In this document: positions 1,241 to 3,976 of the stretch, piece after piece
Layout: every line of letters begins with the position of its first letter
Position numbering within the stretch: the stretch's first letter is position 1
IMG/VR virus record: IMGVR_UViG_2579778535_000019
Reading direction: 5' to 3' (one strand)
DNA: 3,976 nt
From: a virus
Taxonomy: Duplodnaviria > Heunggongvirae > Uroviricota > Caudoviricetes
Notes under the pieces: model-generated
The model's input: the letters and a program-made list of their open reading frames with translations, nothing else
Told to the model about the DNA's origin: nothing
Databases searched by the model: none
Program-made: the position numbers and the translations under genes

Positions 1241-1579
1241 TCAGGATACCGCACCTGCAGCAACACGCCCGATCTCTGCGGTTGCACTCATGACGTAATG
1301 TGACAGTTTCTCTTTTGCCACCTCATTAATCGGTACACATGGCAGACAATGAATCTGTGCCAGAAAACCATCTACCAGCGTTGAATCTTCAGTCAGATCG
1401 GTAAGCAGCCAGATTTCTGGTGCGGTTAATAGATGAGGCTGAGCTGGGTTCAGCTTGTTCCGCAGAATCTGCACATTCATGCCTGCACGTTCTGCCAGTT
1501 GCACCAGATTGTGGCGCAGTGCAAATGCACGACAGGCTTCATCAAAATGTGGATGTTTGGAAACTTGGTAATCAAACAT
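1241..1579 (-). CDS. cII: Phage regulatory protein CII-like (186 CII / CP76 family), apparently C-terminally truncated (112 aa)
   Basis: ORF track 1241..1585 begins at TTG; the likely start is the ATG at 1579-1577, giving [49 protein letters not shown]... with an HTH-like segment. It is the second gene of the operon after the Cox/Apl-like gene, as in phage 186. Phage 186 CII is about 169 aa (established knowledge), so this copy appears shortened. Confidence 0.65.
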
Positions 1580-1611
1580 GGTCAATGCCTCTGATGTATT
1601 TCAGAATCGAA

Positions 1612-1833
1612 CTAATTAAGGTTTAGATTGCATTCTGAAAGCGCATCAACGGTCATGGCTGCTATGTTGATCATCACTTTTTCGCGTTTTTTATCTTTGC
1701 GCAAACGGTGACGGATAAGGCGTCCGTCAGCCAACATGTCATTGATGGTATCGATGGACAGCCCTGTCAGCTCGCTATAGCGCTCAATAGTCACATGAGG
1801 CGTGGTAAGAGTGATTGAAATGTTAGGTCTCAT
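1612..1833 (-). CDS. Cox/Apl-like small DNA-binding protein (excisionase / repressor of the lysogenic promoter), 73 aa
   Basis: ORF track 1612..1833. First gene of the leftward operon, divergent from the repressor gene. Its size and the central segment [28 protein letters not shown] resemble the Cox/Apl winged-helix family, and the position matches cox (P2) / apl (186). Confidence 0.6.
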
Positions 1834-1958
1834 GATGCAACATTCCTCGTTTAATGATGATTAATCAGGACGAATACGGATCGTTTGTATTTTGTGAACA
1901 CCATAAACATACGATCGCACAATGAAATCGTCAAGATAAAAGTTCACTTGGAGTGACC
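1834..1958. promoter_or_regulatory. Lysis-lysogeny switch region between the divergent cox/apl-like and cI-like genes
   Basis: 125 bp AT-rich intergenic region. Contains a direct repeat ATACGGATCG (1874-1883) / ATACGATCG (1908-1916), two GATC sites, and an imperfect inverted repeat around 1888-1912 (GTATTTTGTG ... CATAAACATAC). Confidence 0.5.
1906..1934 (-). promoter_or_regulatory. Candidate sigma70 early lytic promoter (pR/Pe-like) reading leftward toward cox/apl
   Basis: On the minus strand: -35 TTGACG (1934-1929), 17-nt spacer, -10 TATGTT (1911-1906). Predicted start near 1899, giving a leader of about 65 nt before the cox/apl ATG at 1833. The second copy of the ATACGATCG repeat overlaps the -10. 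Confidence 0.4.
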
Positions 1959-2528
1959 ATGAATTTGGAGAAAGGCGGACGAGGCGCTATAGAGCGCATG
2001 GTAGAAGCTTATGGATTCAAAACTCGACAGGCGTTGTGCGATCATTTAGGAATCTCTAAAAGTACACTCGCCACACGCTACATGCGTGACTCATTCCCAG
2101 CAGAATGGGTAATCCAGTGCGCCCTTGAAACGGGCACCTCGCTTAATTGGCTCACAACCGGACATGGTTCAAAGCAAACTTCAGGTAATACAAATACTAT
2201 GGAAGTTGCTAAATATGTATTATCTGATGGTGCCTTGCGTGAAGACGGTTTTTATATTTTTGATAAGGGATTTTTACCCTCTACGTTTAAAAAACCTTTT
2301 GTCATCACAGATAACAATTCTGAATTTATTTGTGATAAAGAATTTGATGATATACGTGATGGTAAATGGGTAATAAGTATTGATGGCGAAGTAACGATCC
2401 GTGACATTACTCGTTTACCCGGTGGAAGAATCTTCGTCGAGGGTGGAAACAGAGCCTTCGAATGTAAGATAGAAGACATTGAAATAATTGGTAAAATTAT
2501 AAGTTTAACAGTCAAGTATGTTAAATAG
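1959..2528 (+). CDS. cI: Phage CI-type repressor (186 CI-like: N-terminal HTH domain plus C-terminal oligomerization domain), 189 aa
   Basis: ORF track 1953..2528 begins at GTG; the likely start is the ATG at 1959 with GGAG 5 nt upstream. The N-terminal segment ERMVEAYGFKTRQALCDHLGISKSTLATRYMRDSFPAEWVIQCALETGTSLNWLTTG fits the 186 CI-type HTH domain. Length is close to 186 CI (192 aa), and the gene is divergent from cox/apl and upstream of int. Confidence 0.8.
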   Translation: MNLEKGGRGAIERMVEAYGFKTRQALCDHLGISKSTLATRYMRDSFPAEWVIQCALETGTSLNWLTTGHGSKQTSGNTNTMEVAKYVLSDGALREDGFYIFDKGFLPSTFKKPFVITDNNSEFICDKEFDDIRDGKWVISIDGEVTIRDITRLPGGRIFVEGGNRAFECKIEDIEIIGKIISLTVKYVK

Positions 2529-2543
2529 TACCGGGAGGAAACT

Positions 2544-2735
2544 ATGCTTGGTAAGGTATTTTTTGTGGTTTTGTCATGTTCTTTGTTATTAAACCCACTA
2601 ACTACCTATGCTAGAAATTATCCCTGCTCAGGGAAAAAGGGAGGTGTTTCTCACTGTACCTCAGATGGCAAATTCGTTTGCAATGATGGAACTATTAGTA
2701 AATCCAAAAAAATCTGTACTAAAAACTCACGATAA
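2544..2735 (+). CDS. Small secreted cysteine-rich protein of unknown function (63 aa precursor; predicted signal peptide, ~40 aa Lys-rich mature part with 4 Cys)
   Basis: ORF track 2544..2735. Strong SD GGGAGG 5 nt before the ATG, 15 nt after the cI stop. N-terminus [23 protein letters not shown] has n/h/c signal-peptide architecture with a T-Y-A cleavage motif; mature part [40 protein letters not shown]. Lies in an AT-rich segment. Confidence 0.5.
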
Positions 2736-2923
2736 CTTTTGCTTTTATATCTGCGTCTAAAATAAAAATGAGCCGCAGGTTAACCGCAAAAGTTACATGC
2801 TCACATAGCAAAAAGAATAGCCAACTTCATTATGGCTTCAGTGAGATGTATGGTCGTAGGATTTCATACATTGACACTGGTTATACATACAGTAAAAATG
2901 CTCTCTACTGGAGGGCATTTTTT

Positions 2924-3976
2924 ATGGCAGTACGAAAACTCACCACAGGGAAATGGCTTTGCGAATGTTACCCCGCCGGACGAAGTGGGCGTCGTGTGCG
3001 TAAACAATTCGCCACCAAAGGCGAAGCTCTGGCTTTTGAGCGTCACACTATGGAAGAAACCGAATCAAAGCCATGGCTGGGCGAATCAGTGGATCGTCGA
3101 ACCCTGAAAGACGTGGTTGAGCTATGGTTCAAACTACATGGTAAATCTCTGACTGCTGGGCAGCATGTCTATGACAAATTGCTGCTGATGGTTGACGCTC
3201 TGGGCAATCCTCTTGCAACCGATCTCACCTCTAAAATGTTTGCCCACTATCGAGATAAACGCCTGACAGGCGAGATCTACTTCAGCGAGAAATGGAAGAA
3301 AGGAGCAAGCCCGGTCACCATTAACCTGGAGCAAAGCTATCTAAGTAGTGTTTTTAGCGAACTATCCCGTCTGGGCGAATGGGCGTATCCGAACCCACTG
3401 GAGAACATGCGAAAATTCACCATCGCAGAAAAAGAGATGGCATGGCTTACCCATGAGCAGATTGTTGAATTACTGGCTGATTGCAAACGTCAGGACCCAA
3501 TTCTAGCACTGGTAGTTAAGATATGCTTAAGCACAGGCGCACGCTGGCGAGAAGCCGTAAATCTTACTCGTTCACAGGTGACCAAATACCGAATTACCTT
3601 TGTAAGAACGAAGGGGAAGAAAAACAGAAGTATCCCTATCAGTAAAGAGCTTTACGAAGAGATCATGGCGCTTGATGGGTTCAATTTCTTCACAGACTGC
3701 TATTTTCAATTTTTATCCGTGATGGAAAAAACGTCTATCGTGCTCCCTCGCGGTCAACTCACACACGTTCTGCGCCATACGTTTGCGGCGCACTTCATGA
3801 TGTCGGGTGGAAACATTCTGGCCTTACAAAAAATTCTCGGACACCACGATATAAAAATGACTATGCGTTACGCACATCTGGCACCGGATCATCTGGAAAC
3901 GGCGCTCCGTTTCAATCCTCTGGCAACGCTGCCAAGTGGCGACAAAGTGGCGGCAGCGGTTGGCATTACCCCGTAA
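2924..3976 (+). CDS. int: Tyrosine site-specific recombinase / phage integrase (P2-type), 350 aa
   Basis: ORF track 2768..3976, but homology-like sequence begins at MAVRKLTTGKWLCECYPAGRSGRRVRKQFATKGEALAFE (ATG at 2924, GGAGGG 7 nt upstream). C-terminal catalytic signature present: ...STGARWREA..., HVLRHTFAAHFMMSGGNILALQKILGHHDIKMTMRYAH with the R, H-x-x-R, H and Y residues. Stop TAA at 3974-3976 is exactly at the window end. Confidence 0.9.
   Translation: MAVRKLTTGKWLCECYPAGRSGRRVRKQFATKGEALAFERHTMEETESKPWLGESVDRRTLKDVVELWFKLHGKSLTAGQHVYDKLLLMVDALGNPLATDLTSKMFAHYRDKRLTGEIYFSEKWKKGASPVTINLEQSYLSSVFSELSRLGEWAYPNPLENMRKFTIAEKEMAWLTHEQIVELLADCKRQDPILALVVKICLSTGARWREAVNLTRSQVTKYRITFVRTKGKKNRSIPISKELYEEIMALDGFNFFTDCYFQFLSVMEKTSIVLPRGQLTHVLRHTFAAHFMMSGGNILALQKILGHHDIKMTMRYAHLAPDHLETALRFNPLATLPSGDKVAAAVGITP

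Follow-up and report, generated by a model that had tools for sequence, protein, structure and literature searches.

Positions 1815-1958 of the window, by which we mean the whole 3,976-nt stretch of viral DNA analysed here, probably hold the immunity switch of a 186-like (Peduoviridae) prophage, in which a lytic promoter (pR) and a lysogenic promoter (pL) stand face to face and the CI repressor acts through inverted-repeat operators; we put the probability of this reading at roughly 0.7. Judged from its sequence, it is a 186-type switch of the ordinary kind, new in its specificity, and its architecture reproduces the design of phages 186 and HP1. The observations on which this reading is built are the gene identities, the motifs and their coordinates (Table 1), the conservation and the positional homology to the 186 and HP1 annotations.

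In the model that we propose, transcription from pR would start near 1899 on the minus strand and run into apl, cII and beyond, and the weaker pL, on the plus strand, would start near 1850 and run through pR into cI, the 63-codon ORF and int. As in 186, the strong pR would suppress pL via transcriptional interference until CI silences pR. CI is predicted to bind 17-bp inverted repeats of 6-5-6 layout with the half-site G-n-T-C-n-C, namely a proximal site (1942-1958) upstream of the pR -35, a distal site (1883-1899) over the pR start and probably a third one (1913-1929) in the pR spacer; the second of two GATC sites would then be the outer half of the middle site, and the first would flank the distal one. 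With CI on these operators, pR would fall silent and pL would maintain the expression of cI and int, by analogy with 186. Apl, made from pR, would bind between the promoters, presumably at about 1850-1882, and double as the excisionase, again as in 186. We infer the start sites, the promoter strengths, the binding of CI and Apl and the interference by analogy.

Table 1. Genes, promoter elements and candidate sites, in window coordinates
Feature	Positions	Strand	Basis or remark
cII, CP76 family, truncated	1241-1579	-	PF06892, E 1e-37
apl/cox, 73 aa, first gene of the early lytic operon	1612-1833	-	PHROG 575, E 6e-31
pL -35 hexamer TTGAAA	1815-1820	+	13-18 nt inside apl; register of 186 and HP1 pL
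pL -10 hexamer CAACAT	1838-1843	+	17-nt spacer; positional homologue of 186 CATGAT and HP1 TAAACT
Perfect 10-bp palindrome TGATTAATCA	1858-1867		Invariant in 39/39
Direct repeat, copy 1, ATACGGATCG	1874-1883	+	Holds the first GATC
Distal CI operator candidate GTTTGT-ATTTT-GTGAAC	1883-1899		About +1 to +17 of pR
pR -10 hexamer TATGTT	1906-1911	-	17-nt spacer; TAnnnT at the same place in 21 relatives
Direct repeat, copy 2, ATACGATCG	1909-1917	+	Overlaps the pR -10 and the second GATC
Possible middle CI operator GATCGC-ACAAT-GAAATC	1913-1929		Occupies the pR spacer; second GATC (1913-1916) in the half nearer the -10
pR -35 hexamer TTGACG	1929-1934	-	TTGAC(G/A) kept in all 21 aligned relatives
Proximal CI operator candidate GTTCAC-TTGGA-GTGACC	1942-1958		Abuts the cI ATG
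cI, 189-aa 186-type immunity repressor	1959-2528	+	Pfam PF07022 and PF16452; PDB 2FJR/2FKD
63-codon ORF	2544-2735	+	ORF listing; between cI and int
Integrase, int	2924-3976	+	ORF listing and family searches

The deleted prophage and its regulatory genes

The window carries a deleted 186-like (Peduoviridae) prophage of E. coli, with the order int, cI, apl/cox, a cut cII and late genes. In Pfam searches the repressor has the N-terminal domain Phage_CI_repr (PF07022, E 2.7e-33) and the C-terminal domain Phage_CI_C (PF16452, E 5e-29); it matches the solved 186 CI structures (PDB 2FJR, E 3e-31) and is 32% identical to 186 CI (E 8e-38), and RefSeq gives the same start codon, the ATG at 1959. The product of apl falls into PHROG 575, 'Cox-like excisionase and repressor', and its homologues in phage records are labelled Cox. 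A repressor with these two domains is thus found together with a Cox/Apl-like first gene of an opposed lytic operon that is followed by a CP76-family CII, as in a 186-type switch; a P2-type switch would have a C repressor of about 99 aa and two direct repeats flanking the early promoter, and the repressor here is a CI-type protein of 189 aa.

From 1245 to 3976 the window is 99.8-100% identical to prophages of many E. coli chromosomes, and the prophage of strain L9, located between ybjL and rcdA, has cII at full length together with fil, a TraR-like gene and a DNA adenine methylase. The cII of the window breaks off at about 1245-1252, which leaves 112 codons versus 169 in related prophages, and is joined to the 3' end of a terminase-subunit gene, followed by other P2-like late genes; a head-completion adaptor, tail protein X and a holin were recognised in family searches. 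Beyond the junction the late genes share 98% identity with Peduoviridae of Klebsiella and E. coli, and the replication, portal and capsid genes have been lost. In other E. coli strains, too, the likeness to the window ends at about 1245, and the genes that follow there are different ones. This makes it a deleted prophage with an intact immunity region, and because of the deletion there may be no viable lytic cycle left for the switch to control. Sequence like parts of the window is present in 1342 of 5426 complete genomes, and all top-ranked matches are 99.8-100% identical over the cI-to-int portion.

Some structures near the switch are recorded here in their own right. A strong hairpin at 2871-2923 (-18.5 kcal/mol, z = -4.4) is made of an A-run, a 13-bp stem and a U-run. 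It extends to the int ATG (2924), with the Shine-Dalgarno sequence of int, GGAGGG, hidden inside it, and a promoter-like TTGACA-17-AAAAAT precedes it; the hairpin could be a terminator or attenuator, or it could serve the translational control of integrase. The search of RNA families gave no Rfam match. Between apl and cII, an inverted repeat (TTCAGAAT / ATTCTGAA, 1600-1639) brackets the stop codon of apl, at the place of the FR operator and the pE promoter in 186, and beside it lies a CII-site-like element (GATGTTTGGAAAC..AATCAAACATG) that is conserved with 186.

Promoters and candidate operators between apl and cI

Constraint was read from 39 distinct same-immunity sequences, taken from genome and viral contig collections, with a column called polymorphic when its minor allele was present in at least 3 sequences. 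The intergenic region is strongly constrained: polymorphism so defined affects 15 of its 125 columns, and in the flanking genes it affects 27 of 40 (cI) and 31 of 44 (apl) third-codon positions. The variable spots of the region (1854-1856, 1871, 1878, 1901-1902, 1917, 1919-1922, 1936-1937 and 1948) fall between the proposed elements and in the operator centres. Essentially invariant are the hexamers of both promoters, TGATTAATCA, the block 1879-1900 and both ends of the pR spacer, and the spacer centre, 1920-1922, is the most variable spot of the region.

The original prediction proposed a minus-strand promoter of the form TTGACG, 17 nt, TATGTT about 25 bp from the cI start. Such a promoter is present at 1934-1906, its -35 ends 24 nt before the ATG at 1959, and it is conserved in position in more than 20 related switch regions. 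The consensus match is weak for both promoters, 9/12 for pR and 8/12 for pL, the latter below the threshold of the scanning tool, and the whole window has 6 matches of 9/12 versus 4.7 expected. The pR match is not significant alone, and its support comes from conservation in relatives: TTGAC(G/A), a 17-nt spacer and TAnnnT are found upstream of cI in 21 sequences from at least 10 immunity groups.

For the opposing promoter, the TTGAAA at 1815-1820 in the 5' end of apl/cox had been regarded as a weak candidate only; the hexamer is indeed there, but it is the positional homologue of an annotated pL. Both TTGAAA and CAACAT are invariant in 39/39 same-immunity sequences, and the pL -35 is also found in heteroimmune relatives. 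The record of phage 186 marks pR and pL as well as the sites of CI, Apl and CII. In the same orientation, pL reads TTGCGA tttcagaagcCATattg CATGAT in 186 and TTGAAA tgttaggtctCATgatg CAACAT in the window, and in both the -35 is followed by 10 nt and then by CAT, the complement of the apl ATG, with the -10 beginning 17 nt after the -35; PL as annotated in HP1 keeps to this register as well (TTGCAT, 10 nt, CAT, with the -10 TAAACT). At the sequence level, then, pR and pL face each other and the -35 of pL falls within the beginning of apl, as in a 186-type switch. When +1 is taken 7 nt past each -10 hexamer, the predicted starts lie near 1899 (pR) and near 1850 (pL) and are separated by about 49 bp. 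In P2-like phages, an interval of 40-60 bp that contains the excisionase sites separates the face-to-face promoters (PMC7498355), and the predicted distance in the window falls inside this range, that of 186 being 62 bp. With a pL register as in 186 and HP1 and a pR conserved in relatives, the face-to-face reading, which the original prediction had proposed, is supported by homology, and we regard convergent pR and pL promoters as the supported arrangement.

The annotated 186 CI sites, FR (ATTCACATAAAGTGAAT), FL (CTTCACTTAATGTGAAT) and two at pB (ATTCACAAAAAGTGAAT and ATTCACGAATTGAGAAT), are 17-bp inverted repeats of 6-5-6 layout, the A-type being ATTCAC-N5-GTGAAT. The clearest operator candidate of this kind in the window is the proximal one, which was absent from the original prediction. 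It is 1 mismatch away from a perfect 6-5-6 palindrome, has 0 mismatches to GNTCNC-N5-GNGANC, agrees with the 186 A-type at 9/12 positions and contains the cI Shine-Dalgarno sequence GGAG; the CI-binding region that the 186 record gives for pR likewise starts at the cI start codon. Its half-sites show 1 variant among the 39 sequences, in the right half, and the other variable column, 1948, is central.

The distal candidate has a poor left half and 3 mismatches to GTTCAC-N5-GTGAAC, which as a pattern match is at chance level; its right half, GTGAAC (1894-1899), is the reverse complement of GTTCAC, the best half of the proximal site, and 2 of the 3 GTTCAC hexamers of the window lie inside the 125-bp region. 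Heteroimmune relatives have palindromes of their own at the distal distance from the promoter (GTACCCAATTGGGTAC, ATTCCCGCAATGGGAAT, AGGGTTTGAAAAACAAACCCT and GTTCACGTTTTGTAGAC), and the proximal and distal segments of 13 phages are more alike within than between phages (permutation p = 0.003). The middle candidate has 1 mismatch to GNTCNC-N5-GNGANC, although its right half fits poorly, and it occupies the position of the central operator of 186. Its halves are conserved and its centre is hypervariable (minor-allele counts at 1919-1922 of 3, 14, 15 and 20 of 39), and palindromes fill the spacer in the relatives L021 (CGACCACTTAAAGTGATCG), RE2010 (ATCTTGAATCAAGAT) and YenM_324 (ATTCGCTTTTTGAGAAG).

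CI of 186 uses three operators at pR (PMC3675496). Over pR in the window we find two reasonable inverted-repeat candidates and one weaker, centred at 1950, 1921 and 1891, i.e., about 30 bp apart rather than at the expected spacing of about 21 bp, with 59 bp between the outer sites. This spacing corresponds neither to whole helical turns nor to the two-turn spacing of 186, so the wheel-wrapping geometry of 186 may not carry over; at 186 pB the operators are 32 bp apart, which is closer to the value in the window than the two-turn spacing at 186 pR (PMC3675496).

Counterparts of the 186 FL and FR sites, which would lie about 300 bp to either side, were found neither in the window nor in a related E. 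coli prophage with more of its early operon left; outside the switch sites, the pattern matches in both were at chance level and none fell where FL or FR would be expected. Such searches would miss weaker or different types of site. Pattern searches of the same two sequences for a pB counterpart gave nothing convincing, and the region upstream of ogr in the related E. coli prophage held a lone GTGAAT only. An imperfect inverted repeat, 1879-1896 / 1899-1916, with 14/18 positions paired, arises in 0.9% of shuffles and was not in the original prediction either. The corresponding 38-bp palindrome (1879-1916) was rejected as a single site, as the inner part of its right arm (1901-1904) is variable and the left arm shows no changes that would compensate.

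Direct repeats, Apl and the GATC sites

The operators had originally been sought in a direct repeat, ATACG(G)ATCG. Its first copy lies at 1874-1883 as described; the second copy is located at 1909-1917 and not at 1908-1916, and its ATA is part of the pR -10 hexamer. That CI uses these two copies as operators, blocking pR from the copy over the -10 in the manner of P2 C, is highly improbable to us. Both copies do exist in constrained sequence, the second does overlap the -10, and C repressors of the P2 family do use direct repeats, but P2 C is unrelated to CI (PMC1904268) and the repressor in the window is a 186-type CI, the annotated sites of which at FL, FR and pB in 186 are inverted repeats. 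Moreover, a 9/10-nt direct repeat with one indel occurs in 20-40% of shuffles of the 125-bp region and is therefore not beyond chance, position 1878 in the first copy belongs to the small number of columns that vary, the two copies have changed separately from each other in relatives of the same immunity (ATACTGATCG versus ATACGATCA or ACACGATCA), and heteroimmune relatives have palindromes, not direct repeats, at the operator positions. Direct-repeat operators were rejected on these grounds; the repressor sites are most likely inverted repeats. Improbable too, though somewhat less so, is that the whole switch region is an inert relic whose motifs became inactive after the replication and head genes were lost. 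It would fit the truncation of cII at about 1245-1252 and its fusion to late genes, but the switch is identical to loci on viral contigs of 22-24 kb (L025 and L027) and to that of a less-deleted E. coli prophage with full-length cII, fil and dam, and with cI, both promoters (pL and pR) and the operator candidates intact, the expression of CI and immunity to superinfection are still plausible. Two other repeat pairs, CGCTATAGCGCTCA / CGCTATAGAGCGCA (1773, 1985) and GATCGCACAA / TTGTGCGATC (1913, 2034), were put down to chance, the second copy of each being in coding sequence and relatives giving no support.

The palindrome TGATTAATCA spans about +9 to +18 of the predicted pL transcript, and its centre (1862.5) is 28.5 bp from that of the distal operator; its partner could possibly be a weak CI contact or Apl. 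The latter leads to a reading in which the block 1850-1882, comprising TGATTAATCA, GAATAC and the first GATC, is an Apl/Cox binding array and not a CI target, the likeness of the GATC stretches being incidental. We consider this possible, if clearly not the favored explanation. Excisionases bind between and over the face-to-face promoters in 186 (by its annotation) and in P2-like phages (PMC7498355), the block is almost invariant, and heteroimmune relatives with this type of Apl have a (G/A)TGATTA motif in roughly the same location. Yet a series of direct repeats at 10-11 bp spacing could not be recognised in 1844-1905, and the block mostly differs among heteroimmune phages with closely related apl (~87% DNA identity). 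When att-proximal DNA of a related prophage, downstream of int, was compared with the switch, AT-rich similarities only and no convincing common motif emerged.

Each repeat copy was said to contain a GATC, and these are indeed found, at 1879-1882 and 1913-1916; over the whole window the motif is as frequent as expected (14 versus 14.2). The first site is kept in 38/39 same-immunity sequences and is not conserved in heteroimmune groups. The second is kept in 38/39 window-type variants, and a GATC at -17 to -14 of pR occurs in 21/21 aligned sequences, the flanking bases of which vary; it is also present in phages SEN8, RE2010 and ST512-KPC3phi13.6 and in all 10 sampled immunity groups with the CI helix SK(S/G)T(L/M)A(N/T)R. 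Groups with other CI helices (186, HP1, ESSI-2, ESSI2_ev129 and YenM_324) are without a GATC at pR, and in the 186 clade the 110 nt upstream of cI are free of GATC in all 55 distinct switch regions. Within 3 kb, the pR operon has a dam gene in 15/21 SKST-type loci versus 3/80 loci of the 186 clade (six loci were left unscored as their flanks were too short); the sets compared were L104-L183 for the 186 clade and L003-L023, L185, L186 and L194 for the SKST type. The presence of dam correlates with a GATC at pR, yet two 186-clade loci have dam and no such GATC, and we did not retain dam as a predictor.

In the simplest reading, the second GATC is probably a CI operator half-site of the form G-n-T-C-n-C. 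GATC-type half-sites also occur at the proximal operators of relatives (GATCAC in L009, GATCTC in L003 and RE2010, where the window has GGTCAC), and the spacer palindrome of RE2010 has them on both sides; recognition by CI alone could thus explain the conservation. This weighs against the alternative that the GATC sites are kept for control of the switch by Dam, either the host's or the phage's own, which we consider rather unlikely but which can coexist with the 186-type reading. Methylation at -17 to -14 might alter promoter activity or CI binding, or CI occupancy might keep the site unmethylated and so leave an epigenetic mark. What speaks for such a control is the fixation of the pR GATC across the helix groups and the window-type variants while its flanks vary, its absence upstream of cI in the 186 clade and the distribution of dam. 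In addition, the second base of the half-site is T or G in the best sites of the window (GTTCAC, GGTCAC), so that CI leaves it free elsewhere, yet it is always A at the second GATC. On the other hand, all of these correlations are confounded by shared ancestry, the two exceptional 186-clade loci run counter to them, and the first GATC is not conserved beyond the immunity group of the window. In the literature searched, nothing specific turned up on a control of 186-like or P2-like switches through Dam or GATC. IS10 pIN, pap and agn43 are Dam-sensitive promoters or switches in which a protein competes with Dam. The window resembles them in having a GATC that lies both in the promoter core and in a probable repressor site, and differs in that this GATC is in the spacer, not in the -10 or -35, with methylation dependence a conjecture here. 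More doubtful still is the specific proposal that CI occupancy and adenine methylation compete or cooperate at the pR GATC in the SKST(L/M)A(N/T)R subclade.

Relation to known switches and apparent exchange of the immunity module

Phage 186 (Eganvirus) is alike in the order of int and cI followed by the oppositely oriented apl and cII, in the two domains of CI and in the intergenic length (125 bp in the window, 129 bp in 186). The pL register is identical and pR adjoins cI in both; the first operator abuts the cI start codon, a candidate operator lies in the pR spacer, and the best operator is A-type-like. The differences are several. The recognition helices of the two CI proteins read SKSTLATRY in the window and ASSSLSNRY in 186, pR of the window is 10 bp farther from cI, and the operator centres are about 30 bp apart instead of about 20 bp. 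The two Apl proteins have very little in common (E 1e-4 over 20 residues), and the array of seven Apl sites in 186, like its FL and FR sites, has no recognisable counterpart in the window. The 186 clade does not have the GATC that lies in the pR spacer here.

The Haemophilus phage HP1 has a CI homologue that is 34% identical, the same register of PL relative to the cox start and face-to-face promoters; it differs in its two tandem lytic promoters, PR1 and PR2, in its operators, in its CI recognition helix and in having no GATC in the PR spacer. P2 shares the convergent early and lysogenic promoters (Pe and Pc) with Cox acting between them, and the late genes of the window are P2-like. Its C repressor, however, is small and unrelated and binds two direct repeats (PMC1904268), whereas the window encodes a CI-type repressor; different origins of the C and CI repressors have been concluded before (PMC3448106).

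Two groups of relatives bear on how the immunity module is inherited. In L006 and L064-L081, CI is 89% identical to that of the window with a near-identical C-terminal domain, and the operator region is entirely different; the recognition helix differs by one residue, and the main N-terminal differences are at residues 2-9. This suggests that the N-terminal arm helps to set the immunity specificity, or that recombination has mismatched repressor and operators. In L007, L008 and L087-L103, the CI N-terminal domain and the operator region are near-identical to those of the window and the C-terminal domain has diverged (~60-70% overall identity), with the boundary of DNA similarity on the apl side near 1847. 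From the shared N-terminus and operators and the diverged C-terminus, the immunity module appears to be exchanged as a unit of the cI N-terminus plus operators.

Taken as it stands, the switch defines a distinct immunity type that is common in E. coli. With operators about 30 bp apart, as compared with the two-turn basis of the wheel model of 186 CI, its repressor could test the generality of that model. The fixation of a GATC in the lytic promoter of one subclade, with none in the 186 clade, is a lead on the purpose of phage-encoded Dam methylases. If a role of methylation were true, CI would shield the GATC in lysogens, or (hemi)methylation after replication would tune CI binding or pR firing, and an epigenetic layer, with feedback via the phage's own methylase, would be added to a switch so far explained by protein binding and interference.
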